A stretch of DNA of 64,000 bases from Dehalococcoidia bacterium (GTDB lineage Bacteria; Chloroflexota; Dehalococcoidia; UBA2979). This document shows positions 5,224 to 30,349 of this stretch, piece by piece. Position 1 is the first letter of the stretch, and each line of letters begins with the position of its first letter. The stretch spans positions 64,001 to 128,000 of the forward strand of contig OZ219868.1 of NCBI GenBank assembly GCA_964291495.2, read 5' to 3'. A model generated the notes under the pieces. That model made no database searches, was not told the DNA's origin, and was given only the letters and a program-made list of their open reading frames with translations. Made by a program: the position numbers and the translations under genes.

Positions 5224-5252
5224 CCTGTTCGCGCCCTCGGGAGGGCGAATGC

Positions 5253-5328
5253 TGGCAGGAGTGGAGGGACTCGAACCCCCGACCTGCGGTTTTGGAGACC
5301 GCTGCTCTTCCAGCTGAGCTACACTCCT
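5253..5328 (-). tRNA. tRNA-Trp(CCA)
   Basis: Reverse complement AGGAGTGTAGCTCAG...GCGGT-CTCCAAA-ACCGC...GGTTCGAG...CACTCCTGCCA. Confidence 0.95.
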
Positions 5329-5444
5329 GGGCCCTCCGAGTCTATCAACGGCCCGCCGGGGAGTGAAGCGCGGCGCAGTAGGGCGGCGCGCGTCCGCGAA
5401 GTTCGAGCTGAGGGCAGCGGCGTCGACAGCGGTCGCTGCGTGCC

Positions 5445-6341: not shown

Positions 6342-6391
6342 GGAGCCTCCTCGTCCGGGGATCGCGGCTCCATCATACGGGAGCCCGCGCT

Positions 6392-7006
6392 TCAGGCCGC
6401 CGCTCGGCGTGCGCGCAGCCGGTGCCAACCGAGCCAGGCGAGGAGCGCAGCAACGGCCGCCGCGGCGAGCGCGCTCACCACGATGTCGAAGCGATCCGTG
6501 ATGAACTCGGCGAAGCGTTCGCCCCAGAAGAAGATCAGCACGCCGTAGACGCCGAAGCGCAGCCCGCGCCCGAGAATCGAGGCGAAGACGAACTGCGTGC
6601 GCGGTATCCCGACAACCCCCGCGCCGATGGTGAACACCTTGTAAGGGATTGGTGTCAGGCCCGCAGCTGCGACGGCCCAGAATCCCCAGCGCTGGAGCAG
6701 CTCCTCGACACGCTCGGCGTGCCGGCTGTGCAGCCGCAGCAGCAGCGGCCGGCCGAGCCGCAGGCCCAGCCAGTGACCGACAACGCCTCCGAGGACGGAG
6801 GCGACGATGGTGAGCGCGGCGAGGATGAGCGCGGCGTCCGGATGGCGCAGCGCGAGCGCGACCAGCAGCGGGTCCGTGGGGATCGGGAAGAAGACCGACT
6901 CAGAGGCGGTGATCAGGGCGAGCGCGATCGGCGCGACCGGGCTGTCCGCCCAGTCGATCAGCCACTCGCGCAGGTCATCCAGCCACTCGCGCAGGTCGTG
7001 CAGCAC
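6392..7006 (-). CDS. YqaA/DedA (VTT domain) membrane protein
   Basis: ESVFFPIPTDPLL, TPIPYKVFTI, GRGLRF motifs. Confidence 0.88.
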   Translation of the reverse strand: MLHDLREWLDDLREWLIDWADSPVAPIALALITASESVFFPIPTDPLLVALALRHPDAALILAALTIVASVLGGVVGHWLGLRLGRPLLLRLHSRHAERVEELLQRWGFWAVAAAGLTPIPYKVFTIGAGVVGIPRTQFVFASILGRGLRFGVYGVLIFFWGERFAEFITDRFDIVVSALAAAAVAALLAWLGWHRLRARRAAA

Positions 7007-7117
7007 GAGGTACAGCGTGAGCCCTCGATGCGCTCAGGGGCAACCGCGAGGCGGCAGCAACCGCGAGCGTGACGAGACGTCAGCCCGCGGGATGGTGCGT
7101 GGAGTCCGGGGGAGTGC

Positions 7118-7471
7118 CTAGTGGCCGCCGCCGCTGGCGCAGCCGCAGCCGCCGCCTTCGGCCGCCTGCGCGTTCGGGGCGTCGATGGTGAAGCCCTTTC
7201 GCATCAGGTCGTCCTCGGTGTAGTCGATCGAGGCGCCCTCGAGGCTGTTCGCGGTCGTCGGGTCGACGATGAAGGTGACGCCGTGCAGGTCGAGCACGTT
7301 GTCGTCGTCACCGGCCTTGTCGATGCCCATCGCGAAGGAGGGGCCGGAGCAGCCGCAGCCGCCGCCGCGCGCGAAGATGCGCAGGCCCTGGTCTTCGCTC
7401 TCGCGCTGCTGCGTGACGATCATGCCAAGCCGCTCCGCGGCGTCCTTGCTGACGGTGAGGGTCAGGCTCAT
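7118..7471 (-). CDS. HesB/IscA family Fe-S cluster assembly accessory protein
   Basis: GGGCGCSG...IDY...GFTIDAPNA...GCGC. Confidence 0.88.
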   Translation of the reverse strand: MSLTLTVSKDAAERLGMIVTQQRESEDQGLRIFARGGGCGCSGPSFAMGIDKAGDDDNVLDLHGVTFIVDPTTANSLEGASIDYTEDDLMRKGFTIDAPNAQAAEGGGCGCASGGGH

Positions 7472-7525
7472 CGAGAACTCCTCTGGTGTGGGGCCGCGCC
7501 GCGTCCGGGGCGGCGGCCGCTTCGC

Positions 7526-9850
<2,325 letters not shown>

Positions 9851-9917
9851 GGCCGCATCCTAGCGCAGAACGCCCGTTCGCGCACCTGCACTCGCGCTTT
9901 TGCACGGGTTTCCGCGG

Positions 9918-10454
9918 CTAGTTCGCGCCCTCCGGATCAACGCCCGAGAGCGTACTCGCGCGCTCGATCAGGCCCGGCACGTCCTCGATCTCGCCCTCGA
10001 CGGCGATGTGCGTGCCGCCGCGCTCGGAGAGCCGCCAGCGCACGTTGCCGAGCGTCTCGACACGCTCGATGTGCTCGAGCTCTGCCCAGCGCACCTCCGT
10101 GAGGGTGCGCCCTCGATGGAGCGCGAGAGCTCCCGTGCGGGTGAGCACGATCGCGGTCGCGGTGCGCCGCCAGGTGAACCAGACGATCGGGAGCTGCAGC
10201 ACCATCACGACGGCGAGGAAGATCCCGAACCCCGTCGCCTCAGCCGATCCGGCCAGTTGTCCGATCGCGAGAAAGACGAGCGCGCCGAGCAGCGGCAGCA
10301 CGAACGAGGCGTGGTTCCACCAGTGCGACTCGTTGCGGTGGGCCGCGACCACCTCGAGGCCTTCGAGGGCCGCGCGGTCGTCGGGGTGGATGGGGCGCAG
10401 TGACGCGGCCGCCGATTCGCCGGCGGCGTCGCCCGGGTCCTGCTCGCCGTCCAT
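9918..10454 (-). CDS. Hypothetical membrane protein (2 TM + PH-like C-terminus)
   Basis: Two hydrophobic segments then a beta-rich tail; fits the minus-strand operon. Confidence 0.6.
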   Translation of the reverse strand: MDGEQDPGDAAGESAAASLRPIHPDDRAALEGLEVVAAHRNESHWWNHASFVLPLLGALVFLAIGQLAGSAEATGFGIFLAVVMVLQLPIVWFTWRRTATAIVLTRTGALALHRGRTLTEVRWAELEHIERVETLGNVRWRLSERGGTHIAVEGEIEDVPGLIERASTLSGVDPEGAN

Positions 10455-10481
10455 CGCGTGCCGGTTACGCCGCCATGCGCG

Positions 10482-10904
10482 CTAGACGCGCTCCCACTGC
10501 GGCACGAGCAGCGTCTCGTCCTCGTCGATGATCTCCTCGAAGACGGCGCGCACCTTCTGGCCGATCGCCACCTCGCCGGGCTCGCAGTTGAGCACGTTGC
10601 CCAGGATGCGCACGTGCGGATGCTCGTCGAGGCTGACGAGGGCCACGGCGTACGGCACGGCCTCGGCCAGCGCGGGGGCAGGTGGGTTGTGGACGACGAT
10701 GTAGGAGTAGACCGTCCCCTCGCCGTTCGTTTCCAGCGAGCGGAACTCCATAGCCCTGCAGGCGTTGCACGCGGCGTCCGGCGGGTGCTGGACCGTCCCG
10801 CACGGCACGCACTGCTGCACGACCAGTTTGCCCGAGGTGAAGAAGTCGCGGTTGAAGCGGTCAAGCTGGGGGATGGGCCAGTCTTCCGGCATGAATCGGG
10901 TCAT
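10482..10904 (-). CDS. Zn-ribbon/OB-fold DUF35 (ChsH2-like) protein
   Basis: CxxC...PP..CxxC, GTVYSY, PYAVALVSL; adjacent to a thiolase-like gene. Confidence 0.9.
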   Translation of the reverse strand: MTRFMPEDWPIPQLDRFNRDFFTSGKLVVQQCVPCGTVQHPPDAACNACRAMEFRSLETNGEGTVYSYIVVHNPPAPALAEAVPYAVALVSLDEHPHVRILGNVLNCEPGEVAIGQKVRAVFEEIIDEDETLLVPQWERV

Positions 10905-10959
10905 GGTGCTCTCCTCGCAAGCCCTCGCGGGGCTCGGAACTGCGGTCGCGCGGCGTCGG

Positions 10960-12141
10960 CTACGGCTCGACCGAGAGCAGCGCGGCGCTCGCCGGCAGCG
11001 CTCCCGGTCCCGCGACGACGAGGCTGAATTCGACGTTGTCGACCTGGCAGGTCGACTCGCCGCGGACCTGGCGGGCAGCCTCGTTCACCAGCTCGAAGCC
11101 GTGCACGTAGGCCTCCGCGAGGTTGCCGCCGCTGGTGTTGATCGGCAGCTCGCCGTCCGGCCAGCGGAGGTTGCCGGCGCGCACCCAGTCCTCGATCTCC
11201 TCGGGCGGCGAGAAGCCCATCTCGGAGATCGCCATCAGCGCAAGGCCGGTGAAGTTCTCGTAGAACTGCGCGACCTGCACGTCCCTGGGGCCGACGCCGG
11301 CCCGCGACCAGATCATGTCGGCGATGTTCTTGTAGTGCGCGGTCGGGAAGTCGGGGTCGTTGTAGCCGGCGCCGACGGCGCCCCCGGCGGCGCCGCGGTA
11401 GTCGATGCCCTGCGCGGCCGAGCGGATGTAGACGGGCTGCTTGTCGAGCTCGCGGGCGCGCTCGGCGCTCGTCACGATCACCGCGGCCGAGCAGTCGTTC
11501 TCCTGACAGCAGTCGAAGAGCCGGAACGGCTCGACGATCCAGCGCGAGTTGAGGTAGTCGTCCTTGGTCAGCTCGCGGCCGTGGCGGATCGCCCGGGGAT
11601 TGCGCTGGGCGTGCGCGTAGGCGGCGAGCGAAATCTCCGCGAGGGCGTGCTCGGTGATCCCGTGCTCGTACATGAAGCGCTGCGCGATCATCGCGTACCA
11701 GTGCGCTGGGACCATCACGCCGTAAGGGATGCGGAAGGCGCCCTCCTCGGGCACGCGCACGCGGCCGGTCACGCGCGCCTGGCCGAAGCGCCCGTACTCG
11801 CCCTGGGCGAGGCTGCGATAGCAGACGACGTAGTCGGCGTAGCCGGCGGTGACCGCCGCGTCGGCGATGGCGAGCGTGCCGGCGACGTTGTTGCCTCCGC
11901 CGTCCCAGGACAGCGCGGCGAACTTCGTCTCGTTGACGCCCAGCACCGTCGAGAGCTTCGAGGGCGTGCTGCGGTCGTTGCCGTAGGAGACGAACCCGTC
12001 GATCTCCTCGACATCGATGCCCGCGTCGGCGGCGGCGTTGGTGATCGCCGTGACCGCCAGCTGCAGTTCGCTGTCCGGGGAGCCGCCCGGCCGATAGTAC
12101 GTCGATTCGCCGATGCCGACGATCGCCGAGGTGCCTCGCAT
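10960..12141 (-). CDS. Thiolase-like lipid-transfer protein (Ltp2/SCP2-thiolase type)
   Basis: AIVGIGES, DCCQEND, YENFT, NTSGGNLAEAYVHG; no nucleophilic Cys (WDGGGN). Confidence 0.88.
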   Translation of the reverse strand: MRGTSAIVGIGESTYYRPGGSPDSELQLAVTAITNAAADAGIDVEEIDGFVSYGNDRSTPSKLSTVLGVNETKFAALSWDGGGNNVAGTLAIADAAVTAGYADYVVCYRSLAQGEYGRFGQARVTGRVRVPEEGAFRIPYGVMVPAHWYAMIAQRFMYEHGITEHALAEISLAAYAHAQRNPRAIRHGRELTKDDYLNSRWIVEPFRLFDCCQENDCSAAVIVTSAERARELDKQPVYIRSAAQGIDYRGAAGGAVGAGYNDPDFPTAHYKNIADMIWSRAGVGPRDVQVAQFYENFTGLALMAISEMGFSPPEEIEDWVRAGNLRWPDGELPINTSGGNLAEAYVHGFELVNEAARQVRGESTCQVDNVEFSLVVAGPGALPASAALLSVEP

Positions 12142-12513: not shown

Positions 12514-13203
12514 ATGCAAGGATTTGCGCCGGTGACATTGGATGCCATCTTCCAGCTTCTCGCGACCGCTCAGTTCGGCGCCTACGTCATGTCGCTCGAT
12601 CAGAAGATCATCTTCTGGAATCAGGCCGCCGAGCGGATCCTCGGCTTCCCGCGCGACCAGGTGATCGGTCGCCGCTGCTACGAGGTGGTGACGGGGCTGA
12701 GCCCCGGGGGCTTCACGCCCGAGTGCCTGCTCGGCTGCCCGTCGCTCCGCTCACTGCGAGGCGGTGATATCCCGAGTGCGTTCACCATGCTGATGCTGTG
12801 CGAGTCCGGCGAGCGCAAGGCAGTTTCGCTCACGCCGATGGTGATCGCCGCTCCCGGCGAGGACACGCCGTTCCTGGTACACCTCTTCGACGAGCCCGCC
12901 GAGGACGAAGGAGCCGACCAGGCGGCCGATTCACTGCGGAGCGAGTTGCGTGAGCAGGGCGCAGCCATCGTGTCGGACCAAGCGCCGGCGACCTCGACTC
13001 CGTCTGATCTCGGCAGACTGACCCAGCGAGAGCTCGAGGTTCTGCGCCTGGTAGCCGCGGGCTGGGGCACGCATCGGATCGCCGAGGCGTTGAGCATCAG
13101 TCCGCATACCGTGCGCAACCACGTGCGCCACTTCCGCGGGAAGCTGAACGCGACGACGAAGCTCGATGCAGTCGTCACGGCGATCCGCCTCGGGATCCTG
13201 TAG
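12514..13203 (+). CDS. PAS domain + LuxR-type HTH transcriptional regulator
   Basis: WNQAAERILG PAS motif; LTQRELEVL...IAEALSISPHTVRNHV...KL LuxR HTH. Confidence 0.92.
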   Translation: MQGFAPVTLDAIFQLLATAQFGAYVMSLDQKIIFWNQAAERILGFPRDQVIGRRCYEVVTGLSPGGFTPECLLGCPSLRSLRGGDIPSAFTMLMLCESGERKAVSLTPMVIAAPGEDTPFLVHLFDEPAEDEGADQAADSLRSELREQGAAIVSDQAPATSTPSDLGRLTQRELEVLRLVAAGWGTHRIAEALSISPHTVRNHVRHFRGKLNATTKLDAVVTAIRLGIL

Positions 13204-13354: not shown

Positions 13355-15838
13355 ATGAGTAGGGTTCTCGCCAGGCTGAGCTGGCTGATCACCGTTCGCC
13401 CGTACCTCACGATCCTCGTGCTCTTCATCATCACCGTCGTGCTGGCCGCGGGAGCAGGGCGGCGCGCCCCGGTCGTGGAGGGCGCTGCCCTGGCCTTCCT
13501 GCCCCCGGGGAACGCCGTCGCCAATGCGATCGAGGAGATCGACACGCACTTCGGGGAGTCGAGCGACGTCGGCGTCGTCACGCTGATCTTCCGTGGGGAC
13601 GCACTCACTCCCGAGGGGCTCGCGCAGATGGACGGCCTGATCGGTCGCATCGCCGGCGATCCGGGCGTGGGGGAGCTGCTGGCGCACGGCGACCCGATCA
13701 TCGCGCCCACCCTGGTCATCAATGCCGTGCTCCAACGAGATGGCCTCGCGGCGGTCACGCAGGCGGAGATCGACGCCGCCCGCGCTGTCCCCGAGATCGG
13801 CGGGGCGCTCGACGCGATGACCGGAACCGACACCGACGGTACGCCGGTCGCGATAGCCACGATCCGCCTGATCAACACCGGGGACGAGCGAGTAAAGGAG
13901 GCCGAACGGCGGATCAACGAGCTGGCGATCGCGGACGAGGGCCCACTGCGCGTGAGCAGCGTCTCGCCGATCGTGGTCGAGGATGAGTACCGCAAGGCCA
14001 CCGAGGAGGGCATGGCGCCCCTGATCGGCCTGGCGCTGCTCCTGATCGCCGCACTGATCCTGGTCTTCCTCCGCACGCTTTCGGACCTGCTGCTCACGCT
14101 GGTCGGCCTGCTCCTCTCGCTGATCTGGGTGATCGGGGCGGAGGGCTGGCTCGGACCGAACGCGCTGGGGCTGATCGGCCCGCCGAGCTCGCTGACCGCA
14201 TTGGTGCCGATCATCGTGATCAGCCTCACCGTGGACTACGCGATCCAGGCCGTCTCGCACTACCGCGAGCAGCGCGCCGAGGGCGAGCCGGTGGTGGCGG
14301 CGGTGCGGATCGGACTGCAACACGTCACCGTCCCGCTGACCCTGGCCGCCGTCACGACGATCGCGAGCCTGCTGGTGAACCTGCTCTCCCCGATCGGGGT
14401 GATGGGCGACTTCGGCATCGTCGCCGGGCTCGGCGTGGGGATGAGCCTGATCGTGATGCTGACGCTGATCCCGGCCGGCCGGGTGATCATCGACCGGCGG
14501 CGCGAGTCGCGCGGCACGTTGACGCAGCCTCGCCAGGTCGCGAACGCCCTGCCCGGCATCGGCCGGCTGGCGGAGCTTCTCGGGACCTCGGTCGCGCGCA
14601 CCCCGGCGCCCTACTTCGTCGTCGTGATCGCGGTGACCATCGGGCTCGGGTACGCAGCCACGGGACTCGAGTCCGGGTTCAATATCCGCGAGATCCTTCC
14701 CCGGGGCGGCAGCGTGCTGAAAGACATGGAGACGCTCGACGCAACCGTCGGCGGCTCAACGGAGATGGCGAGCGTGCTCATCACGGCCGAGGCCACCGAG
14801 ACTCGCACGCTGCTGAACCTCCACGACCTCAGGATTGCCTTCGATGACGAGGCGCGTCGCCCGCCGGCGGCGGCGGGACCGATCCAGGTCTCCTACGAGT
14901 TACTCGTCAGCGACTGGACAGAGGACAGCGGCGCGCTCGGCGACAAGTACGATCCGGAGCTCGCAGCGCTCTTCCAGCAAGCCACCACGGGGGTGCAGCT
15001 CGACCCGATCGTGATGCAGGAGTTCCTCGACAAGCTCACGGCGAGAGATCCCACCCTCGCGCGTGCGCTTGTGAACGATCCGCAGGGCGTCGACGCCATG
15101 CTGGTCCAGTTCCCAGCCTACTCAGGGGATCCCGCAGTCACGAGGGAGCTGCAGGAGGACATCGAGGCGCTCTGGTTCGGCGACGACGGCGCGGTGACGG
15201 CGACCTCGCTGGACATCGTCGCGGTCGCGGTTACCGACGAGATCACCGGCCGGCAGACCCAGGCGATCAGCACGACCATCGCGGTGGCCCTCGGGATTCT
15301 CGCCCTCTTCTTCTGGGTGACGCTGCGCCAGCCGCTCCTGGCGGTTGTCGCGGTGGGGCCGATCGTGCTCGTCCTTATCTGGGTGCTGGGCACGATGGCG
15401 CTGCTCGACATCCCCTACACGCTGGTCACCTCGATCATCACGGCGCTCTCCATCGGGATCGGGGTGGACTACACGATCCACCTGATCCATCGCTACCGCG
15501 AGGAGTTCACCCGTGTGCGCAATCCGGAGCAGGCGGCGATCCGGACGCTGGCCACCACCGGCTCGGCGCTGCTGGGCTCCGCGCTGACGACGGCGCTCGG
15601 GCTCGGCGTGCTGGTGGCCTCTCCGCTGCTCGCGTCCCAGCAGTTCGGCCTCACGGCGGCGATCACGATCGCCTACTCGCTGATCGTGTCGATCCTCGTG
15701 GTGCCGCCCGCCATGACCGTCTGGGGCGCCTACCAGAACATGCGGCTCCGCTCGATGGTGGACCGCATGGCGGAGGAGCTGGACCTGGCGATCGAGGCGG
15801 TGCACCGCCGCCACGAGGAGGAGCAGGGCGCGCCGTAG
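13355..15838 (+). CDS. MMPL/RND family lipid transporter (paralog 1)
   Basis: 12-TM RND layout with two large loops; SLTVDYAI and GIGVDYTIH D-Y motifs. Confidence 0.9.
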   Translation: MSRVLARLSWLITVRPYLTILVLFIITVVLAAGAGRRAPVVEGAALAFLPPGNAVANAIEEIDTHFGESSDVGVVTLIFRGDALTPEGLAQMDGLIGRIAGDPGVGELLAHGDPIIAPTLVINAVLQRDGLAAVTQAEIDAARAVPEIGGALDAMTGTDTDGTPVAIATIRLINTGDERVKEAERRINELAIADEGPLRVSSVSPIVVEDEYRKATEEGMAPLIGLALLLIAALILVFLRTLSDLLLTLVGLLLSLIWVIGAEGWLGPNALGLIGPPSSLTALVPIIVISLTVDYAIQAVSHYREQRAEGEPVVAAVRIGLQHVTVPLTLAAVTTIASLLVNLLSPIGVMGDFGIVAGLGVGMSLIVMLTLIPAGRVIIDRRRESRGTLTQPRQVANALPGIGRLAELLGTSVARTPAPYFVVVIAVTIGLGYAATGLESGFNIREILPRGGSVLKDMETLDATVGGSTEMASVLITAEATETRTLLNLHDLRIAFDDEARRPPAAAGPIQVSYELLVSDWTEDSGALGDKYDPELAALFQQATTGVQLDPIVMQEFLDKLTARDPTLARALVNDPQGVDAMLVQFPAYSGDPAVTRELQEDIEALWFGDDGAVTATSLDIVAVAVTDEITGRQTQAISTTIAVALGILALFFWVTLRQPLLAVVAVGPIVLVLIWVLGTMALLDIPYTLVTSIITALSIGIGVDYTIHLIHRYREEFTRVRNPEQAAIRTLATTGSALLGSALTTALGLGVLVASPLLASQQFGLTAAITIAYSLIVSILVVPPAMTVWGAYQNMRLRSMVDRMAEELDLAIEAVHRRHEEEQGAP

Positions 15839-15891: not shown

Positions 15892-16914
15892 CTAGAGGGG
15901 CTTTCGAGCGAGAAAACAGTAGAGCGGTGTGAAGATGCCTGCCTTGCCGCCCGCGACATAGGCATCCGCAGTCCGATCGAGCAGTCGGACGACTTCCGCG
16001 GAGCCCTCGGGAAACAGCCGCACCACTTCAGCCAGCCCCAGTCCTGCGATCAACGCCTTGCGGCCCCACGGAAGCCTGCGAAGGGCCGTTCCCAGCGTCC
16101 CGTGGCGGCTTTCCATGGGCTGATACCAGGGTGTGGATGGTTCCGTTGTGGCTCCTCGGTCTAGCCCTTCGATAACGTGGAACCCGGCCTCTTCAAGCGC
16201 GTGGTTCACCTCCCTGAACGTCGCGATCTCGTTCAGAGCAATCCCGCGCATCAGGTCCTGCTTGATGGCCTGATGGCGGCGGTCGTTCGGATCGAACGTG
16301 TCCGTAAGGCACATCTCCTGGCCCCAGAAGAGGGCTCCGGGCTTCAGCACGCGGAAGATCTCCTCGAACGCACCTTGCTTGTCCGGCGCGTGGCACGTTG
16401 ACTCGATAGCGTACCCGCCGTCGAAGGTGTCGTCCGCGATTGCGCCCATGTCCATGAAGCTGCAGGCGTGGTAGTCAACCATGTGGTCGAGCCCCGCCTC
16501 GGCGTTCAACCGTTTCGCCCTCTCCAACTGGATCGTGTTGATGTTGATGCCGACTACGCGGACGCCGGACTCGCGGGCGACGCGGCGCATGGGGCCGCCG
16601 ATTCCACAACCGACATCGATAACCGTCATGCCCTGCTGCAGCTCCAGCCGGGAGATCATCAACCGCTGATGCCGGACCTGGGACTCCTCGAGGCTCTCGG
16701 TTGGGGAGAGGGGCGCGAAGTGCAGGGACTCGCTCCAGCCCCACACCATGAATCCGCTGCACAGGTCGTAGTAGTCCTTGACCGTCTCCGTGTGGTCGTA
16801 CCCGGCTTCTGGCGCCGCCCGATCGATCCAGCCGTCGAAGCGCTGGACTCTGTGCCTGACGTCCGTTCCCCGGTACGCATCTCGCAGCTCTCTCGATAGC
16901 CTGCGCAACTGCAC
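15892..16914 (-). CDS. Sterol C-24 methyltransferase-like (ERG6/SMT family) SAM-dependent methyltransferase
   Basis: YYD...WGWSESLHFA (region I), DVGCGIGGP (II), YAIESTCHAP (III), RVLKPG, C-terminal GGKAGIFTPLYCFLARKP (Sterol_MT_C); GGAGGAG RBS. Confidence 0.9.
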   Translation of the reverse strand: MQLRRLSRELRDAYRGTDVRHRVQRFDGWIDRAAPEAGYDHTETVKDYYDLCSGFMVWGWSESLHFAPLSPTESLEESQVRHQRLMISRLELQQGMTVIDVGCGIGGPMRRVARESGVRVVGININTIQLERAKRLNAEAGLDHMVDYHACSFMDMGAIADDTFDGGYAIESTCHAPDKQGAFEEIFRVLKPGALFWGQEMCLTDTFDPNDRRHQAIKQDLMRGIALNEIATFREVNHALEEAGFHVIEGLDRGATTEPSTPWYQPMESRHGTLGTALRRLPWGRKALIAGLGLAEVVRLFPEGSAEVVRLLDRTADAYVAGGKAGIFTPLYCFLARKPL

Positions 16915-17045: not shown

Positions 17046-19091
17046 TTATGAGCTCGCGGCCGGCGCTGTGGGGATCTCGCGCCGCTGCTCGGCGATGTGG
17101 AACTTCAGCTTCTTGCTCACCGAGAGCGACGGGAACGGGTCGATCTTGAGCTTGTAGTTCCTGGGCGCCACCTCGATCGTGAAGTGGTGCGCGAGCAGCA
17201 GCAGGTTGACGGCGAGCTGCAGCTCCATCCAGCGGTTCCCGAGGCAGGTATGCGTACCCAGCCCGAACGGGGCGTACCCGGGGCTGAGGTGTTCGTTGCG
17301 CGGAGGCAGGTAGCGGTCGATGTCGAATGTCCACGGCTCCGGGAAGATGTCGCTCATGTAGTGCGCCGCTGCCTGGGCGATGAAGATCCGTGACCCCTCC
17401 GGGATTTCGTAACCCTCGACCACGCACGCATTCATCACGGTCCGGACGGACATCGGAACGATCGAGTACATGCGCATGGATTCCATGATGAAGCGGCGCG
17501 TCACGTCGATCGAGTCCTCCGTGAAGCCCTCGCGTCCGGGATCGCCGCCATCGAACAGGGCGTCCGCCTCTTCCCGGATCCTGGCGTAGAGCTCGGGCTG
17601 GGACGCCATCGCGTAGAGCGCGAAGCTCAGGCCATCGCCGAGGTAGACGCTGGCGATCAGCGGCGCGGAGAGGACGAAGCGCAGGTTCGACTCCGGGAGG
17701 AACGAAGGGTCGCTCGAGTGCAAGCTGAGCAGGTCGTCCGCGAGATCGCGGGGGCAGCCCGCCCGCTGGGCGGCCGTGTGGACACTCTGGACGCGCTCCA
17801 GCAGCACCTGGATGCTCTTTGCCCGGCGCCGCATTCCCGGGGTCTTGAGCATGAACTTGGGCATGACACCCAGGACGTGCGTGGACAGCGCCCGCGTCTT
17901 GTACTTGACCAGATCGTCCAGGACGTCCTGCGAGTCGACGCTGATCATCAGGGGCGAGATCTGGGAGTTGATCAGCTGCCGGCACATGGACACCGCGGGG
18001 CGAGTGTCTCCAACCTCCCAGGTCGCCATGTGTGACCGGGTGTGGTCGTAGAGATCCTCGAGTTGCCCTTCCAGCCTCGCGCGCGAGTACCCCGGCGCCA
18101 GGGCCTTGCGGAACCGGAAGTGATCGGCGCCGTCCAGCGCGGGCAAGATTCCCGATGCGCCATAGACCTTCTCGAAGTCCTGGAGATAGTCCCGGGCCCT
18201 CAGGTACGTGCGCCCCTGCCGATGCGCCCAGTAGTTCGTCTCCGACCCGGCCAGGACGAGCATGGGCTTCTGGAACGGCGGGTTGAGCTGGTACACGGGC
18301 CCGTACTGTTCGGCGAGATCCGCGAACAGTGCGGGGAGATTGCCGTCGCGAAGATGCCGGTGCAGCGCGAACTTGAGCAGCGGTACCTGGGGAATCGACT
18401 TCGTAAGGCCGGCACGTCCGATCAAGGGGACGTTCATGTTCTGGGTGACTGCCTCGGCGATCGCCCGCCCGATCAGGTCCATCCGGCAGACAAGCTCGAT
18501 GCGCTCCTCCAGCTCGTCGTCGAGCTGGAACATGAAGCGAAACACGTCACAGGTATTGACGAGGGCGACAATGATCACGTCACGAGGGTCGGGGATCTCG
18601 TTGTTGAAGAGCACCCTGCTGATGCGCGTCTTGACGAACTGGGCAGCGGTGCCTTCCCTCTCGCTGCTGAACATCTCGGTCTGCCATGCACGATTCGCAA
18701 GCGTCCAGAAGTCGCCTTCGTGATGCTCCAGGATCTGTCGATCAACCAGGCGCTCAAGCGTCAGGTCGATGATCGACTCTGCACGCGGCGCAAGCCGTTC
18801 GATCCAGTATTGCGCGTTTCGCTGCGTCGTTTCACTTGCAATCTGATCCAGAATGGGATCCAGAACAGGATTGCCGGTTTCCGTCTGGTCCAGAAGGATC
18901 AGGGAGTCCATGTCTGTATCGATACGAGATATGAGCGACAGCTCCGCAAGTGCGGCGCCGACGACGGCGCAGTTCAAGTGCCAGCCTGGTACCTGGTGAA
19001 AGTACCCGCTCTCTTCATTGAGCAGCATCAGGATGAGCTCTTCGGGCAAACTCAGCGCTTGAGTCGTCACGCGGTCGGTAGCGAGAGTCAT
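17046..19091 (-). CDS. GPP34 (GOLPH3/Vps74)-domain cytochrome P450 fusion (paralog 1)
   Basis: N-terminal ~215 aa LSLPEELILMLL...GAALAELSL..RI...TGNPVLD...LERLV..(G)IL; C-terminal P450 with ESMR, PWTFDIDRY, FGLGTHTCLG. Confidence 0.85.
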   Translation of the reverse strand: MTLATDRVTTQALSLPEELILMLLNEESGYFHQVPGWHLNCAVVGAALAELSLISRIDTDMDSLILLDQTETGNPVLDPILDQIASETTQRNAQYWIERLAPRAESIIDLTLERLVDRQILEHHEGDFWTLANRAWQTEMFSSEREGTAAQFVKTRISRVLFNNEIPDPRDVIIVALVNTCDVFRFMFQLDDELEERIELVCRMDLIGRAIAEAVTQNMNVPLIGRAGLTKSIPQVPLLKFALHRHLRDGNLPALFADLAEQYGPVYQLNPPFQKPMLVLAGSETNYWAHRQGRTYLRARDYLQDFEKVYGASGILPALDGADHFRFRKALAPGYSRARLEGQLEDLYDHTRSHMATWEVGDTRPAVSMCRQLINSQISPLMISVDSQDVLDDLVKYKTRALSTHVLGVMPKFMLKTPGMRRRAKSIQVLLERVQSVHTAAQRAGCPRDLADDLLSLHSSDPSFLPESNLRFVLSAPLIASVYLGDGLSFALYAMASQPELYARIREEADALFDGGDPGREGFTEDSIDVTRRFIMESMRMYSIVPMSVRTVMNACVVEGYEIPEGSRIFIAQAAAHYMSDIFPEPWTFDIDRYLPPRNEHLSPGYAPFGLGTHTCLGNRWMELQLAVNLLLLAHHFTIEVAPRNYKLKIDPFPSLSVSKKLKFHIAEQRREIPTAPAASS

Positions 19092-19246
19092 CCATCTTCC
19101 TCCCTGCCCGTCATCAAAATAGTGTAGGTCACGCGCTCAGGCCTCGCAAGGCGACATCCGTGAGACGTCCGGCCAGCCGTGCGGGGAACGCCCCGCTCCC
19201 GTATCCTGACTCCGTGCAGCGGACGACAACAGCGGGAAGGCAGGCC

Positions 19247-20629
19247 ATGGCAACGGGCCGGGGAGCGAGAGCGCCACGGCGAATTGCCATTGTCGGCGGG
19301 GGTATTTCCGGGTTGGCCGCGGCGTGGGCGCTGCACCATCACCCGGACCGCTTTGACTTCCGCCTCTTCGAGGCTCGGGACCAGCTTGGCGGCAACGCGA
19401 TCACGGCTGATATGCCGCAAGGTGACGGCAATTCGATCCCGTTCGACATTTCTGTTACCGCCTGTATCCCATCTGTATACGACCATATTGTCCTGCTCAT
19501 GGAGCAGTTTGGCATCGAGCTGCTCGACACAAGATTCAGCTACAGTGTGAAGTACGCGGGCCAGGTATACGCGCACGACTTCGACTCTGATATCAGGGAA
19601 GAACTGCGATCTGAGATTGCGAGATTCCAACGACTCTTAAGGCGGCTGCATTGGTTCGGAGCCCTCACCCGGTCCCGGTCGAAGCTCCTGAACGCGCTCA
19701 ATCCGTTCAACTACATCAGCATGGGAACGGTGCTCAATCTGGGAGGGTTTTCCGCCGACTTCCGCTACAAGGTGTTGAAGCCGATGTTCGTCAACTTCCT
19801 GATGGCGACGAACGTGTTCGATATGCCTGCGGCGCTCTTCACGAGGTACCTCGAGTTCTTCGATATCGAGACCGCCACGCCGATGCAGACGTGGGACCAG
19901 GGCACGCGACGCATCTACGAGCAGCTGTCGGCCGGCTTCCTCGACAAGATCTCCCTGAGCCGCCCGGTCCGGAAGGTGTATCGCCGCGCCGCCGGAGTCG
20001 TCGTCGAGGACGAGGACGGCGCGCGGGAGGCGTTCGACGATGTGGTCTTCGCGTGCAACGCGAACCAGACGCTGATGATGCTCGACAGGCCTACGATGCT
20101 CGAGCGCCAGCTCCTCTCCTCGATTCGCTACGACAGCGAGCTGCACAACCACGCGATCGTGCACTCGGACTCCTCGGTCCTGCCTGACAACGAGGTCAAG
20201 CCGCTGACGACGCGCAGTAATCACATCGAGCAGTACGGGGCGCGGCCGGACAACTACGAGATCACCTACATCATGCACAACCAGCAGCCGTGGGCGAACA
20301 AGTCGGACAAGCCCTGCCTGGTCACCTACAACCCGATCAGCCGCATCGACGAGGAGAAGATCGTCAAGCGAACGTGGTTCCAGCACATCGTCCACGACGT
20401 GCGCCACGTCGCCCTGACCGTGAACCTCTTCCGCTTCATCCAGGGGAAGCGACGAACCTGGCACTGCGGCGCCCACACGCTGATCAACAGCCAGGAGACG
20501 TGCTTCGTCACCGGGCTCGCCGCGGCGAGGCAACTCGGCGCCGACTACCCCTTCGAGGATCCTGCGGCGCGGCAGTCATTCAACTACTACGGCAGCATCC
20601 TCTACGGCTCGCGATTCAGGAAGGCGTAG
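19247..20629 (+). CDS. FAD-dependent oxidoreductase (COG2907/UfaD-like amine-oxidase fold)
   Basis: IAIVGGGISGLAAAW, FEARDQLGG, QGKRRTWHCGA; start set at ATG 19247 with GGAAGG RBS. Confidence 0.8.
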   Translation: MATGRGARAPRRIAIVGGGISGLAAAWALHHHPDRFDFRLFEARDQLGGNAITADMPQGDGNSIPFDISVTACIPSVYDHIVLLMEQFGIELLDTRFSYSVKYAGQVYAHDFDSDIREELRSEIARFQRLLRRLHWFGALTRSRSKLLNALNPFNYISMGTVLNLGGFSADFRYKVLKPMFVNFLMATNVFDMPAALFTRYLEFFDIETATPMQTWDQGTRRIYEQLSAGFLDKISLSRPVRKVYRRAAGVVVEDEDGAREAFDDVVFACNANQTLMMLDRPTMLERQLLSSIRYDSELHNHAIVHSDSSVLPDNEVKPLTTRSNHIEQYGARPDNYEITYIMHNQQPWANKSDKPCLVTYNPISRIDEEKIVKRTWFQHIVHDVRHVALTVNLFRFIQGKRRTWHCGAHTLINSQETCFVTGLAAARQLGADYPFEDPAARQSFNYYGSILYGSRFRKA

Positions 20630-20778
20630 CGCCCGAGGGCCCTCGTCACAGGGGTCCGGCGGACCCCGCGGCGCGCACCGTTCGGCGTGCGACGAGCGGG
20701 TGACTCTCGTATTCTGGATCTGTGCCCGCTTTGCGGGGAGGCCGTCAACCCGGTATCCGGGGTGAGGAGGGCCGAGCG

Positions 20779-21885
20779 ATGCCAGTCCGACACGGCGAGC
20801 CCGCGATTGTCTCGCTGCCCCCGTTCCCCGAGGGCTGGTACTTCGTCACGAGCCGCAAGGCCCTGCAGCAGGCCGGGCTCATCCAGAAGACCTGGATGGG
20901 CGAGGACATCGTCGTCTGGACTGACGAGGAAGGCCGCGCCTGCGTCGCCGAGGCCATCTGCCCGCACCTGGGCTCCGATCTGGGACCCGACGCGGGCGGG
21001 CGCGTCTGCGCCGGCCGGCTCGTCTGCCCCTTCCATGGCTTCGAGTTCGATACGACCGGCCAGTGCGTCGACACTCCCTACGCTCCCCCGCCCAGGTCCG
21101 CCAGGCTGCGCGTCTTCGAGACACGAGAGATCGCCGGCCTGATCTTCGGCTGGTGGGGGATCGGAGGTCGGGAGCCTCAATGGAGCCTCCCCGAGGAGAC
21201 GCCGGACCAGACCGGCTGGAGCGAGGTGTACGTCCAGACGCTCCGCTTCCCCGGCCACCCCCAGGAGATCGCGGAGAACTCGGTGGACCTGGCCCACCTC
21301 CGCTACATCCACGGCTACCACAGCGTGAACCGCGTCGAACCGGCCTCGGTAGACGGGCACCACATGGTGAGCCGGTTCGACTTCACGAGTCGCCGCAAGG
21401 TCGCGAAGGTGGCGACCCTCACCTTCGAGCTCTCCGCCAACACCGACATCTACGGGCTGGGCTACTCGTTCGTCGACATCCGGGAGCACACGATCGGCAT
21501 GGATCTGCGTCTGTGGATCCTGGCGACGCCCGTTGACGGCACGCTCGTCGACATGACGCTGGCCTCGCAGGTGCGGGAGATCAGCAACCCGAAGCGACTG
21601 TTCGTCGGCCTGGGCTTCCTCCCGCGCAAGCTCCGCGCCCCGCTCATGAACAGGTTCATGGCGTCCCGGCAGCGTCAGGACGTGCTGGACGACGTCGTGA
21701 TCTGGAGCCGCAAGCAGTTCGTGTCGCCTCCGCGCCTCAACCGCTCCGACGGCGAGATCATGGCCTATCGGGCGTACTGCGCCCAGTTCTACCCCGACCC
21801 GACCGCCGACGAGAGCGCCGCTGCGACGCACATGGCGCCGCCCCGGGAAGTCCCGAGAGCCGCGGCCGTCTCGCTGCGCGACTAG
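20779..21885 (+). CDS. Rieske non-heme iron oxygenase/desaturase (Neverland/DAF-36 or KshA-like)
   Basis: PPFPEGWY, CPHLG...CPFHG Rieske motif, ENSVDLAHLRYIH iron motif, DVVIWSRK; GAGGAGG RBS before ATG 20779. Confidence 0.85.
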   Translation: MPVRHGEPAIVSLPPFPEGWYFVTSRKALQQAGLIQKTWMGEDIVVWTDEEGRACVAEAICPHLGSDLGPDAGGRVCAGRLVCPFHGFEFDTTGQCVDTPYAPPPRSARLRVFETREIAGLIFGWWGIGGREPQWSLPEETPDQTGWSEVYVQTLRFPGHPQEIAENSVDLAHLRYIHGYHSVNRVEPASVDGHHMVSRFDFTSRRKVAKVATLTFELSANTDIYGLGYSFVDIREHTIGMDLRLWILATPVDGTLVDMTLASQVREISNPKRLFVGLGFLPRKLRAPLMNRFMASRQRQDVLDDVVIWSRKQFVSPPRLNRSDGEIMAYRAYCAQFYPDPTADESAAATHMAPPREVPRAAAVSLRD

Positions 21886-25982: not shown

Positions 25983-26184
25983 AGCCTGCCGGCGTAGCCC
26001 GCGGTGACCACGGAAGCCAGGGTTGGCCGCCCGCAGGGTCCGAGGTCCGCATGGCACTCGCCTGTTGGTGCGGGGCACGTCTCTCCCGTAGTCCGTGTAT
26101 CCGCGTCGTCGCGTGGTGGTCCGGTGGGCGGGTGGCGGCTGCACGGTGTCGAGCGGCCGCGCCGCTCACACGGAGTGGCGTGCG

Positions 26185-28809
26185 ATGAACCAGGCGCTCT
26201 CCCGTCTGACCTGGCTGGTCACGGCTCGCCCCTGGGTCACGATCTTCGTCCTCCTGCTGACTACGGTGGTGCTCGCTGCGGGGGCGGAACGGCGCGCGCC
26301 TGTGGTGGAGGGCGCAGTGCTCGCGTTCCTCCCACCCGGACACCCCATTGCGGAGGCGTCGAACGAAATCGACGAGCTCTTTGGGGATTCGGGCGAAGTG
26401 ACGGTTGTCACGATCATCTTCCGCGGGAATGCGTTCACGCCCGAAGGGCTCGCCCAGATGGATGCGCTCACCTGGGGCGTCCTTGCCGACGCACAGGTGG
26501 AAGCAGTGCTGGCGCCCGGTGAGTCAGTGATCGCGCCCTCTTTGCTCGTCCGGGAGGCGCTCCAGGTAGACAGCTTCGAGTCGGTCACGCAGGCGCAGAT
26601 CAACTCCGCCCTCGGTTCACCCGAGATCGAAGAGGTGCTGGCAGCGATGACCGCATCCGACGCAGACGGCAACCCTGTGGCGATCGCCACGGTGCGGCTG
26701 AGCGACGCGGACGAGCGGAAGGTCGCGGATGCGGAGAGGCGGATCAATGAGCTGACGGCCGGAAACGTGGGCCCGTTACGTGTGAGCAGCGTGTCGCCCG
26801 TTGTTGTCGAGGCCGAGTACAGAGACGCTACCGAGTCGGGGATGCTGCCCCTGATCGCGCTCGCGCTTGGGTTGGTCGCATCCCTGATCCTGCTGTTTCT
26901 GCGTACGCTCGCGGACCTCTTGCTCACGCTTCTGGGGCTATTCGTCGCCCTCATCTGGGTCGTCGGCGCGGAGGGATGGCTTGGGCCACATGGTCTTGGC
27001 TGGATCGGCCCGCCGAGCTCGCACAGCGCGATGGTCCCGATCATCGTGATCAGCCTCACCGTGGACTATGCCATCCAGACTGTCTCGAGCTATCGCGAGC
27101 AGCGAACCGCGGGGTTGCCGGTGGCCGATGCGATCGGAACGGGACTGGGACACGTCGCGATTCCACTGATGCTGGCTGCCGTGACGACGATCGCGAGCCT
27201 GCTGACGAATCTGTTCTCGCCCATCGGCGCGGTGGGCGACTTCGGCATCGTCGCGGGCCTCGGGGTTGGCCTGAGCCTGATCGTGATACTGACCCTGCTC
27301 CCAGCGGGACGGATGATCATCGACCGGCGGCGCGAGCAGCGCGCCACGCTCGCTCCGCCCCGTCCGGTCTCGAGTGCGCTGCCGGGCGTCAGGCGCGCTG
27401 CGGAGTTGCTGGGAACGTCTGTCACGCGCCGGCCGGCCCCGTTCATCCTTGTCGTGCTCGCGATCACGGTCGGACTCGGGTTCGCGGCCGCGCGGCTCGA
27501 GACCGGATTCGACATCCGCGACATCCTGCCAAGGGGCGGGACCGTGCTGGAGGACATCGAGACCCTCGAAGCCTTCGGCGGATCCACGGAGATGGCGAGC
27601 GTACTCGTGAAGGCGGAGGCGACTGACACCCGCACGTACCTGAACCTGAACGATCTCAGGGTTGCCTTCGAAGATGATCGGCTCCGGCCACAGGCAGCTG
27701 CAGGGCCCATCCACACCTCATACGAGCTGCTTGTGCACGACTGGACGCACGACAGCGGCGAAGAGGGCGACAAGTACGATGCCGGGCTCGCAGAGCTCTT
27801 CCGCCACGCTTCGGTCGGCCTGAGGCTGAATCCGGTGCTGCTCCAGGAGCTTCTCGACAGGCTGAAGGCGAAGGAGCCCGCCCTCGTCAGCGTACTTGCC
27901 GACAATCCCGATGGAATCGATTCGTTGCTGTTCCAGTTCCCGACCTTCTCAGGCGATCCCGAAGCAACAAGGGCGCTGCAGCAGGACATCGAAGCGCTGT
28001 GGCGAGAAAAGGACGTGAGCGTGACGGTTACGTCGCTGGACGTCGTTTCCGTCGCAGTCACGGATGAGATCACGCGCGGTCAGACGGCGGCGATCAGCAC
28101 GACGATCGCGGTAGCCATCGGCGTCCTCGCCATCTTCTTCTGGGTGACACTGCGGCAACCCGCGCTTGCATTCATTGCGGTGGTGCCGGTGGTGCTCGCA
28201 CTCATCTGCGTGCTGGGAACGATGGCGCTCCTGGACATTCCCTACAACCTGATCACATCCATCATCACCGCGCTCTCCATCGGGATCGGCGTTGACTACA
28301 CCATCCACATCATCCATCGCTACCGCGAGGAGTTCGCCCGCTCGCGCAGCCCGGAGCAGGCGGCGGTCAGCACGCTTGCAACCATCGGCTCGGCGCTGTT
28401 GGGCTCGGCACTGACGACGGCGCTCGGCCTCGGGGTGCTGGTGTTTTCGCCGCTGCTCGCTTCCCAACAATTCGGCATCACGGCGGCGATCACCATCGCG
28501 TACTCGCTGGTCATCTCCATCCTGCTCGTTCCGCCCGCGATGACGGTCTGGGGGTCGTACCAGAACATGCGGTTGCGCTCGATGGTGGAGCGACGTGGGC
28601 AGAGCTCGATGTGGCCATTGAGGATGCGTACCAGCGCCACGGGGAGAGAGCGGGCCTGGCCTAGGATGTTCCTGCCCGCCTGGTCCGGTACGAATGCGCT
28701 GAGGGGTGGGGAGCTCTTCGAAGGTCTGTCGGCGTCTCCGCTGTCCGCAGTCGGCGGTCGCGCGCCGGTCTGGTTGGTCAGGCTGATGTGCGCGGCGAGG
28801 TGCGGATGA
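26185..28809 (+). CDS. MMPL/RND family lipid transporter (paralog 2) with a C-terminal frameshift
   Basis: Colinear with 13355..15838 throughout; the homologous tail lies in another frame ending at TAG 28664. Confidence 0.88.
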   Translation: MNQALSRLTWLVTARPWVTIFVLLLTTVVLAAGAERRAPVVEGAVLAFLPPGHPIAEASNEIDELFGDSGEVTVVTIIFRGNAFTPEGLAQMDALTWGVLADAQVEAVLAPGESVIAPSLLVREALQVDSFESVTQAQINSALGSPEIEEVLAAMTASDADGNPVAIATVRLSDADERKVADAERRINELTAGNVGPLRVSSVSPVVVEAEYRDATESGMLPLIALALGLVASLILLFLRTLADLLLTLLGLFVALIWVVGAEGWLGPHGLGWIGPPSSHSAMVPIIVISLTVDYAIQTVSSYREQRTAGLPVADAIGTGLGHVAIPLMLAAVTTIASLLTNLFSPIGAVGDFGIVAGLGVGLSLIVILTLLPAGRMIIDRRREQRATLAPPRPVSSALPGVRRAAELLGTSVTRRPAPFILVVLAITVGLGFAAARLETGFDIRDILPRGGTVLEDIETLEAFGGSTEMASVLVKAEATDTRTYLNLNDLRVAFEDDRLRPQAAAGPIHTSYELLVHDWTHDSGEEGDKYDAGLAELFRHASVGLRLNPVLLQELLDRLKAKEPALVSVLADNPDGIDSLLFQFPTFSGDPEATRALQQDIEALWREKDVSVTVTSLDVVSVAVTDEITRGQTAAISTTIAVAIGVLAIFFWVTLRQPALAFIAVVPVVLALICVLGTMALLDIPYNLITSIITALSIGIGVDYTIHIIHRYREEFARSRSPEQAAVSTLATIGSALLGSALTTALGLGVLVFSPLLASQQFGITAAITIAYSLVISILLVPPAMTVWGSYQNMRLRSMVERRGQSSMWPLRMRTSATGRERAWPRMFLPAWSGTNALRGGELFEGLSASPLSAVGGRAPVWLVRLMCAARCG

Positions 28810-28888: not shown

Positions 28889-30349
28889 TCAGCGGCGACG
28901 TTCGAGTCTCATCGGCATGCCGCCCTTCACCTTGAGGCTCATGCGAGGCACAACTTCCGCCTTGCCGGTCGCGTCGGCGCGCCAACGACGGCACAGGCTA
29001 GCCAGCGCGATCTTCGCCTCCATCCACGCGAAGCCCTCGCCGATGCACTGGTGTGGGCCTCCCCCGAAGGGGAAGTACGCGAAGCGCGGCAGCTCACTGC
29101 GGAACTCGTCCGTCCAGCGCCCGGGGCGGAACTCCAGCGGATCCTCGAACCAGCGCGGATCGCGCTGCGTGATGAACGGCGCTGCTATCACCGTGACGCC
29201 CGCCGGGACGTGGTATCCGCCCACGTCGATGGGCTCGTACACCATCCTGCCCAGCGCCCAGAACGGCGGATAGAGCCTCAGTGTCTCCGTGATGATCTGG
29301 TCGGTGAGGGGCAGCTGGGGCAAGTCGTCGAGTGTCACTTCGCGATCGCCCAGCACACCGTCCAACTCCGCATGGAACCGCTCTTCCACGTCGGGGTTCC
29401 GCGAAAGGAGATGGAACGCGTACGCGAGGGTCGTCGCCGTGGTGTCGTGCCCGGCGAGGTACAGAGAGACCGCCTCGTCACGCACCAGCTCGTCGCTCAT
29501 CCCGCCGGCGTCCTCGCCTTCCGCATCCTCGTACCTGGCCTGTAGCAGCATGCACAGCAGGTCGTCCCCCTCGGCCCCGGACTGCCGGCGTTCGCGGATC
29601 AGGCCGAAGATCAGGTCGTCCAGGTAGGCGCGAGCAGCCTTGAAGCGCCTCGAGGAAGGCAGCGGCAGACGATGGAGCAGGTGCCGCAGGAACACCGGCT
29701 GGGTCAGGCGGAGATACATGTACCTGTCGGCCTCCGCGAACGACTCACCCACGCGCCGGACCACCTCGCTCGTCTCGATATCGAACAGGGCCTTGGCCAC
29801 CATCTGGAGCGTCAAGTCCCGCATCTCCTGCTCCATGTCCACACTGGCGCCGTCCTGCCACTGCCGGGACTTCCGGGACGAGATGTCGGTCATCGCGTGA
29901 GCGTATTTCTCGATGAACCTGTGATGGAACCGGGGCTGTATCAGCCGCCGCTGCTGCAGGTGAAAGGCTCCCGTGGATGCGACGAGGCCGTCTCCCATCA
30001 TCCAGCGCACGGTCTCGAACGCAGCGGCGCCCCTGCCGGTATTCTGGTGGTTGGTCACCAGGACCTGCTGGTTGAGTTCCGGGTGATTCACGAGATAGAT
30101 CAGGATCGGCTTCATCGCCACGGTGCTGACATCACCGTACGTGGCGGCCTCCTGCAACAGACCAATCAAGTCGGACCGCAGGCGGAACGCCTGCCCGAGC
30201 ACTGGCAGCCCGGATGGCCCAGGGGGGCGTTCAGCTGACTGGATGGACGGTCTGGGAGGATCGGAGAGCGGCTCGGCGTTGGTCGTGACCGACTGTGCCG
30301 GGCGTGGCTGCATCACGCTATCCCGTTCGCCGGAGATGGCCGGCGCCAC
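28889..30349 (-). CDS. Cytochrome P450 (canonical)
   Basis: PPGP, AGHDTTA I-helix, ETLR, FRPGRW, FGGGPHQCIG; alternative start ATG 30313. Confidence 0.93.
   Translation of the reverse strand: MAPAISGERDSVMQPRPAQSVTTNAEPLSDPPRPSIQSAERPPGPSGLPVLGQAFRLRSDLIGLLQEAATYGDVSTVAMKPILIYLVNHPELNQQVLVTNHQNTGRGAAAFETVRWMMGDGLVASTGAFHLQQRRLIQPRFHHRFIEKYAHAMTDISSRKSRQWQDGASVDMEQEMRDLTLQMVAKALFDIETSEVVRRVGESFAEADRYMYLRLTQPVFLRHLLHRLPLPSSRRFKAARAYLDDLIFGLIRERRQSGAEGDDLLCMLLQARYEDAEGEDAGGMSDELVRDEAVSLYLAGHDTTATTLAYAFHLLSRNPDVEERFHAELDGVLGDREVTLDDLPQLPLTDQIITETLRLYPPFWALGRMVYEPIDVGGYHVPAGVTVIAAPFITQRDPRWFEDPLEFRPGRWTDEFRSELPRFAYFPFGGGPHQCIGEGFAWMEAKIALASLCRRWRADATGKAEVVPRMSLKVKGGMPMRLERRR

Follow-up and report, generated by a model that had tools for sequence, protein, structure and literature searches.

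Long bacterial proteins in which an N-terminal GPP34 domain, the domain of GOLPH3 and Vps74, is joined to a second domain have been described as GPP34_L (Ferreira et al., 2025, Microbiome 13:4; PMC11706023). According to that study, 656 of 663 long GPP34 proteins combine GPP34 with a cytochrome P450, rare fusions with a Rieske domain or an ABC-ATPase occur as well, and the long form, restricted to the genomes of sponge symbionts, covers at least 16 phyla, with transcripts in Aplysina aerophoba. It was proposed there that GPP34 secreted by the symbiont binds phosphatidylinositol 4-phosphate (PI4P) and halts phagosome maturation. A separate body of work deals with bacterial sterol genes in sponges. 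Symbiont SMTs (sterol 24-C-methyltransferases) attach alkyl groups to desmosterol and 24-methylenecholesterol in vitro (Brown et al., 2023; PMC10070321), horizontally transferred ERG24-CYP51-LSS clusters, termed CSG, were reported from the same phyla (Kelly et al., 2022; PMC9531527), and sponge-symbiont clusters with sdmA-like Rieske genes are also on record (PMC10070321 / PMC9531527). Here we analysed a GPP34-P450 fusion gene, encoding the protein P0001, in a stretch of 64,000 nucleotides from a Dehalococcoidia bacterium (contig OZ219868.1, positions 64,001 to 128,000), referred to below as the window. We favour, with moderate confidence, the reading that P0001 works in the cytoplasm as a P450 that tailors sterols, has an accessory domain docked onto it and is encoded in a mobile cassette of five genes.

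The original prediction, made from the letters of the window, described a GPP34 domain and a complete P450 in one frame, and the open reading frame together with the Pfam matches bears out this description in every particular. GPP34 (PF05719) matches residues 15-216 of P0001 over profile positions 1-199 of 201 with 107.9 bits (curated cut-off 29.1; E 9.2e-31), and p450 (PF00067) matches residues 244-660 with 132.3 bits (E 2.9e-38). The strings on which the domain had been recognised are present in the protein: LSLPEELILMLL at residues 13-24, GAALAEL at residues 45-51, TGNPVLD and LERLV. The GC content by codon position follows the pattern of a real gene in high-GC DNA. In a set of 5.8 billion proteins, each of the best 120 matches carries both Pfam domains and aligns over the full length at 66-96% identity. 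Moreover, three 'sponge metagenome' sequencing runs from three studies contain contigs 90-96% identical to the gene that span the domain junction near position 18401; no RNA run was listed among those with the gene, and runs with small shares are not counted here as evidence for the habitat. The fusion is no assembly artefact, and it is widespread rather than restricted to one assembly.

The SMT-like gene (P0002) begins 131 bp downstream of the fusion gene, both lying on the minus strand. The original prediction had placed the fusion gene directly upstream of this co-oriented SMT gene, and the link is its most informative part, being conserved across phyla. A scan of contigs from one genome per species gave 599 pattern matches, of which 591 encode a relative of P0001. 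The best 80 of these 591 relatives, at 66-95% identity, were taken as orthologous loci, and partner genes were sought within 10 kb on either side by tblastn with the proteins of the window. The labels of the metagenome-assembled genomes (MAGs) place the 80 loci in Chloroflexota/Dehalococcoidia, Nitrospirales, Latescibacterota, Opitutia, Palauibacter, Binatia, Thermodesulfobacteriota, Rhodothermaceae, Acidimicrobiales and Longimicrobiales, about ten phyla overall; the best locus, 95% identical, is from a MAG of the SB0662 series. A Rieske oxygenase gene was found at 65 of the 80 loci, an SMT gene at 59, a gene for a transporter of the resistance-nodulation-division (RND) type at 56 and a gene for a flavin adenine dinucleotide (FAD) enzyme at 47. 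At 50% identity or more, all four partners occur in 34 loci, three in 18, two in 13 and one in 7. The SMT gene stands directly behind the fusion gene in 52 loci, convergent in 43 and co-oriented as in the window in 9. Gene order and orientation in the cassette differ between lineages, and the gene set persists. When all open reading frames of the 80 loci were clustered blindly, only the five families of the cassette, the fusion and its four partners, proved widely common (75, 59, 58, 55 and 45 loci), all others being found in at most 12 loci. Among these rarer families were an LppX_LprAFG-like lipoprotein (12 loci), an AcrB/HlyD pump (10 loci, Gram-negative hosts), an ERG4/ERG24 sterol reductase (9 loci) and a transporter of the major facilitator superfamily (MFS); no cyclase recurs among the neighbours in this clustering.

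The closest solved relative of the Rieske protein in the cassette is KshA, the 3-ketosteroid 9alpha-hydroxylase, at E 1e-22. This relationship would fit a catabolic system in which the P450, the KshA-like enzyme and the RND transporter together bring in sterols of the host and break them down for carbon, as in actinobacterial cholesterol catabolism, and thiolase-like, ChsH2-type DUF35 and enoyl-CoA hydratase genes do lie 5-13 kb from the fusion gene in the window. We consider such a role distinctly unlikely, because the SMT and the ERG4/ERG24 reductase of the nine loci are biosynthetic or tailoring enzymes, because thiolase and DUF35 genes stand near the fusion gene in just 1 and 2 of the 80 loci, and because no other genes for ring or side-chain degradation recur in the blind clustering. 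In our reading, the cassette would instead modify sterols.

The source of such sterols was addressed from the gene content of the genome itself, which at 3.08 Mb and 93.7% completeness contains one SMT and two SQS_PSY genes; neither an N- nor a C-domain of a squalene-hopene or oxidosqualene cyclase, nor a squalene epoxidase, was found in it. All of five other carriers examined have an SMT, and in three of them no cyclase was found. The presence of the SMT and the missing cyclase, in this genome and in most of the carriers tested, make it most likely that the substrate sterol is exogenous, and it would come from the host or from neighbouring microbes.

That the substrate is a sterol at all could be questioned. 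The RND proteins of the window match the Sterol-sensing and Patched domains, yield weak matches to HpnN/BstA and score best against generic HAE3/MMPL proteins; the nearest resemblance of the FAD enzyme is to LkcE, which acts on polyketides, and to a fatty-acid isomerase; and the two SQS_PSY genes are at hand in the genome. The cassette might thus tailor another polycyclic or isoprenoid lipid or a secondary metabolite, the label 'sterol' coming from family names only. This alternative seems unlikely to us. The Sterol_MT_C domain, matched by P0002 with 61.7 bits, is specific to sterol methyltransferases, the ERG4/ERG24 reductase is present in nine loci, and symbiont SMTs of the same kind as P0002 alkylate sterols in vitro (PMC10070321). 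The alternative is weakened further because, with no cyclase found, the cell would make no hopanoid either.

The fusion appears to have travelled between lineages. A search against representative proteins gave 416 clusters at E<=1e-30, including dozens of full-length fusions at only 25-57% identity, which suggests that the GPP34-P450 family is old and diverse. Within the class of the source bacterium, a full-length match of at least 53% identity was found in 22 of 201 sampled genomes, and in two pieces in 3 more. One genome of the same genus is only 55% identical to P0001, compared with 66-70% in other phyla, and this cross-phylum identity is the same as that within the class. GC content is 0.61-0.68 in the island around the fusion gene as against 0.70-0.74 in the flanks. 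The patchy distribution in the class, the identity across phyla and the low-GC island together argue for horizontal spread of the fusion. Several orthologues from single-contig long-read genomes (G059, G103 and G131) are interrupted by one or two in-frame stops or broken into two parts, which may reflect errors of sequencing or copies in decay.

We then turn to the GPP34 domain. A profile built from 21 N-domains significantly matched only Vps74 and GOLPH3 chains (E 2e-11 to 1e-10). The AlphaFold2 (AF2) model of the N-domain, with a predicted local distance difference test (pLDDT) score of 84.3 and a predicted TM-score (pTM) of 0.83, has strands at residues 121-124 and 128-131. In Foldseek it gave only 8 matches at E<=0.001, all of them GOLPH3/Vps74, with TM-scores of 0.60-0.70 and a probability of 1.00. 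Taken as modelled, the N-terminus of P0001 is a true GOLPH3/Vps74-fold domain, in line with the GPP34 pattern that the original prediction had seen. When the N-domain served as query in the 5.8-billion-protein set, most of the matches were truncated versions of these fusion orthologues.

The residues that hold PI4P are a different matter. The pocket is formed by W81, R90, R171 and R174 in GOLPH3, corresponding to W88, R97, K178 and R181 in Vps74 (Wood et al., 2009). By profile alignment, their counterparts in P0001 are P35 for W81, with W37 two residues further on, V44 for R90, E105 for R171 and I108 for R174; about ten Vps74 residues ahead of the K178 segment have no counterpart in P0001 in the same alignment. 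None of the three basic positions is basic in any of the 80 orthologues, where they are hydrophobic, acidic and hydrophobic, respectively. Across 41 diverse members of the fusion family, a basic residue occupies the three positions in 0, 0 and 22 sequences. From its RxxR spacing, the pair R156/R159 was considered as an equivalent of GOLPH3 R171/R174 and rejected, the profile alignment placing R156 on R223 of Vps74, a core residue. Basic surface was assessed by proxy, from net charge and the tip of the hairpin: the GPP34 domain has a net charge of -20 in P0001 and of -12 on average in the family, being negative in 40 of 41 members (P450 domains average +3), and the hairpin tip in P0001 is HHEGD, which is polar. 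A sequence scan of P0001 found no signal peptide, transmembrane (TM) or hydrophobic segment, and most members of the fusion family start right at the GPP34 domain. Thus none of the three means by which GOLPH3 attaches to membranes, the pocket residues, the basic surface and the hydrophobic tip, is in evidence in P0001. The suggestion in the original prediction that the domain targets P0001 to membranes or PI4P in the manner of GOLPH3 is accordingly not upheld.

The same observations bear on the secreted effector proposed by Ferreira et al. (2025), in which GPP34 binds PI4P on the sponge phagosome and blocks its maturation, with an unspecified accessory role for the P450. The confinement of the long form to sponge symbionts of many phyla, its transcription in the sponge (PMC11706023), its patchy occurrence in the class (22 of 201 genomes) and the eukaryote-like character of the domain all agree with an effector. 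Such a protein would nevertheless have to work with a strongly acidic domain, a polar tip and a pocket with no basic residue at any of its three positions in 80 of 80 orthologues, and at two of them in the whole family, and would have to leave the cell with no signal peptide, most family members starting at the domain. The cassette that holds its gene, moreover, encodes cytoplasmic and membrane enzymes that need S-adenosylmethionine, FAD, Fe-S or haem, and its P450 requires haem and an electron supply. We regard an effector function as improbable; in our reading, the GPP34 domain would be neither a PI4P sensor nor a secreted effector.

In the P450 domain, Cys616, E537 and R540 of the ExxR motif, and R593, the PERF-like arginine, are invariant in all 41 fusion-family sequences, and the haem Cys loop is retained in 80 of 80 orthologues. 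The I-helix deviates from the usual pattern. It reads 'ASVY-LGD' in P0001, and all 80 orthologues have 'SxYLGD' instead of AGx(D/E)T. In the wider family, (D/E)T is found in 24 of 41 members and HT in 4, and the threonine is missing in 13, including the second fusion of the window, P0127 ('ALDPVAG'). The loss of the acid-threonine pair in the orthologue group of P0001 suggests non-standard oxygen chemistry, and we speculate that it could be desaturation, rearrangement, or substrate- or peroxide-assisted activation. The same loss, seen in 80 of 80 orthologues and echoed by the 13 Thr-less relatives, might instead mark a catalytically altered or regulatory P450, a sensor of sterol or haem or a scaffold, that has given up its proton-relay pair. 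We hold this to be very unlikely, since the haem Cys loop is invariant, as are ExxR and the PERF-like arginine, and since EryF, CYP74, CYP8A and CYP152 are active P450s that do not have the pair; for the same reason, its absence does not exclude P0001 from the P450s.

A His-Thr pair in the I-helix is the signature of CYP51, and P0001, which does not have it, matches CYP51 chains at E ~1e-19 to 1e-20, a level that non-sterol P450s reach as well; it is not placed in CYP51 on these grounds. The four representatives with His-Thr (AGxHT) among the 41 are P0143, P0164, P0181 and P0195. No NCBIfam equivalog was reached by P0001, and the protein-cluster search with its P450 part returned only generic 'cytochrome P450' clusters. 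The GPP34 domain immediately precedes the Pro-rich hinge of the P450, ahead of which microsomal P450s carry their membrane anchor. The original prediction had seen GPP34 as a replacement for a TM anchor. The closest unfused P450 relatives (P0193, P0206, P0226 and P0229) begin just ahead of the hinge with no hydrophobic anchor, so that the nearest unfused P450s appear soluble and anchor-less and the GPP34 domain would have been added, not exchanged for an anchor.

How, then, could the GPP34 domain serve the P450? The AF2 model of full-length P0001 has a pLDDT of 90.8 and a pTM of 0.89, and the latter value, for a two-domain protein, suggests a fixed packing of the two domains, with the GPP34 domain predicted to sit tightly against the P450. 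A complex prediction of the P450 domain (residues 232-681, with haem) with the GPP34 domain (residues 10-228) scored 0.44, 0.00 and 0.00 in runs that had no controls, and it speaks neither way on contact between the two. In the mechanism that we favour, P0001 would be a cytoplasmic, haem-binding P450 acting on sterols, and its gene would belong to a compact, horizontally mobile cassette common to sponge-associated bacteria of many phyla, in which the SMT, the KshA-like Rieske oxygenase, the FAD oxidase or isomerase and the sterol-sensing-domain RND transporter would be its partners. The GPP34 domain would no longer recognise PI4P and would act as a built-in accessory or docking module, for instance for the RND transporter or for sterol hand-over; a role in scaffolding or in handing over the substrate, as suggested in the original prediction, is possible.

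Several observations weigh against this reading. Eight of the 80 loci have none of the four partners, although six of the 80 extend over less than 15 kb, and no ferredoxin or reductase recurs in the cassette in the blind clustering. Two of the five other carriers, both of one genus, have a cyclase, and reliance on sterol from outside would thus not apply to every carrier. The P450 domain is equally near to sterol and non-sterol P450s (both ~1e-20). The mapping of the PI4P pocket comes from a profile alignment and not from superposed structures, and W37, near the position of the pocket tryptophan, is conserved in all 80 orthologues, so that the GPP34 domain may retain a pocket for some ligand. 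The packing of GPP34 on the P450 was judged by pTM. A general partnership of GPP34 with MMPL/RND transporters and P450s was considered and rejected: all 3 GPP34 genes of this genome show the pairing, compared with 0 of 15 stand-alone orthologous loci in other genera, which have no conserved neighbour at all, and the RND adjacency seen here is therefore not general.

Since the architecture has already been published, the novelty of the fusion itself is low, and the original prediction overrated it in this respect (Ferreira et al., 2025). What is added here is the link to a sterol cassette across phyla, the missing PI4P pocket and the unusual I-helix. The sole functional hypothesis in print, a PI4P-binding effector, rests on residues that P0001 and its 80 orthologues do not have. 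The locus also joins two literatures, one on GPP34 as a marker of symbiosis and one on bacterial sterol genes in sponges, and offers a five-gene candidate for the modification of sponge sterols by symbionts, which is relevant to the debate on whether 24-isopropyl and related steranes can be trusted as biomarkers of sponges. More tentatively, we see it as possible that the cassette is a mobile means of remodelling host sterols, by which symbionts of about ten phyla that make no sterols themselves take up sterols of the host or community and re-tailor them by alkylation, oxygenation or desaturation, a Golgi-adaptor fold having been re-purposed, after the loss of PI4P binding, as the docked accessory of a P450 with non-canonical oxygen chemistry. 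If this were true, part of the unusual sterols of sponges, including precursors of side-chain-alkylated biomarkers, would be made by symbionts.

The features of the locus are collected in Table 1.

Table 1. Positions in the window of the fusion gene, its parts and the neighbouring genes
Feature	Positions	Strand	Basis and remarks
GPP34-P450 fusion gene P0001	17046..19091	-	ATG-to-stop open reading frame, 681 aa; Pfam; AF2 full-length model
GPP34 (GOLPH3/Vps74-fold) domain, residues 15-216	18444..19049	-	Pfam, profile alignment, Foldseek
Linker and degenerate Pro-rich P450 hinge, residues 217-243	18363..18443	-	Family consensus IPxxxGLPxLG; linker pLDDT ~55
Cytochrome P450 domain, residues 244-660	17112..18362	-	Pfam; best solved relatives 7wzl (putative P450) and 6mcw (CYP51), E ~1e-20
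I-helix centre 'LIASVYLGDG', residues 478-487	17631..17660	-	Tyr at acid position, conserved Thr deleted
Haem-thiolate loop FGLGTHTCLG, residues 609-618 (Cys616)	17238..17267	-	Family alignment
Sterol 24-C-methyltransferase-like gene (SMT, P0002)	15892..16914	-	Sterol_MT_C 61.7 bits and Methyltransf_11
MMPL/HAE3-type RND transporter with sterol-sensing domain	13355..15838	+	Domain search
FAD amine-oxidase-fold enzyme (LkcE/PAI-like), divergent from fusion gene	19160..20629	+	Domain/profile search
Rieske oxygenase with KshA C-terminal domain	20722..21885	+	KshA 4qdc E 1e-22; weak SdmA match
Second GPP34-P450 fusion P0127	23820..25982	+	30% identical, collinear over both domains; TTG start doubtful, GPP34 begins at residue 64
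Second sterol-sensing-domain RND transporter	26095..28809	+	112 bp downstream of P0127, same strand
Third P450, pentalenene-oxygenase-like (299 bits)	28889-30349	-	Profile match
PAS-LuxR regulator	12514-13203

For the second fusion, P0127, a search of 200 genomes of the class found no orthologue above 35% identity, and a Thermodesulfobacteriota MAG (L072) has a 75% identical copy next to a fusion of the first type. The genome also holds one stand-alone GPP34 gene, in the region L085:7288-13248, which convergently overlaps the end of an MMPL gene and is followed there by an ABC1/UbiB-type kinase gene and a P450 gene. Both fusions, both RND genes, the SMT gene, the third P450 gene and an MFS gene lie in the low-GC island, at about 12000-36000 of the window. 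At its edge, 30581-32980 (+) and 33701-36145 (-) encode paralogous proteins that unite GAF, PAS, histidine kinase, receiver and OmpR DNA-binding parts in one polypeptide; a relative of these, 50-54% identical, occurs near the fusion gene in 2 of the 80 loci. On the other side, window positions 35-12141 contain SnoaL-like, luciferase-like monooxygenase, MMPL, enoyl-CoA hydratase, ChsH2-type DUF35 and thiolase-like genes, a set that recalls steroid or lipid side-chain catabolism and that accompanies the fusion only in its closest relative (L005).

Compared with described systems, the cassette shares habitat, phyla and horizontal transfer with the symbiont sterol genes of Brown et al. (2023) and Kelly et al. 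(2022). Their clusters serve de novo synthesis and include a cyclase, whereas no cyclase was found in the cassette of P0001 or in its genome. Supplements aside, the main text of PMC10070321 contains neither 'P450' nor 'GPP34', and that of PMC9531527 none of 'GPP34', 'Golgi' and 'Rieske'. Conversely, 'sterol' is absent from the text of PMC11706023, supplementary flanking-gene figures aside, whereas P0001 lies in a sterol cassette. We found no literature that links GPP34 with sterol genes in a search that did not extend to subscription journals and supplements.

GPP34_L, as described in PMC11706023, is the closest known system, with the same architecture, size and habitat. P0001 carries an N-terminal GPP34 and a C-terminal P450 in one open reading frame of a sponge-associated bacterium and is a member of this group, with nothing different in kind; names of the MAG series in that paper (SB066x, APA and IRC) recur among our 80 loci. 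The Rieske domain of its rare GPP34-Rieske fusions represents the other type of oxygenase in the cassette of P0001.

With P450 BM3 and the Methylococcus CYP51-ferredoxin (6mcw), P0001 has in common a broadly class II-like P450 that is joined to an accessory domain in one polypeptide. It differs from such fusions of P450s with redox partners in that its partner domain is N-terminal and matches no cofactor-binding or redox family. GOLPH3 and Vps74 (3kn1, 9qpq and 2zih), finally, have the same fold and family as the N-domain of P0001, which keeps the beta-hairpin and the core residues R56, D68, D78, W96, R156 and P167. Unlike GOLPH3, this domain has R90, R171 and R174 replaced, is acidic instead of basic, and is fused to an enzyme.

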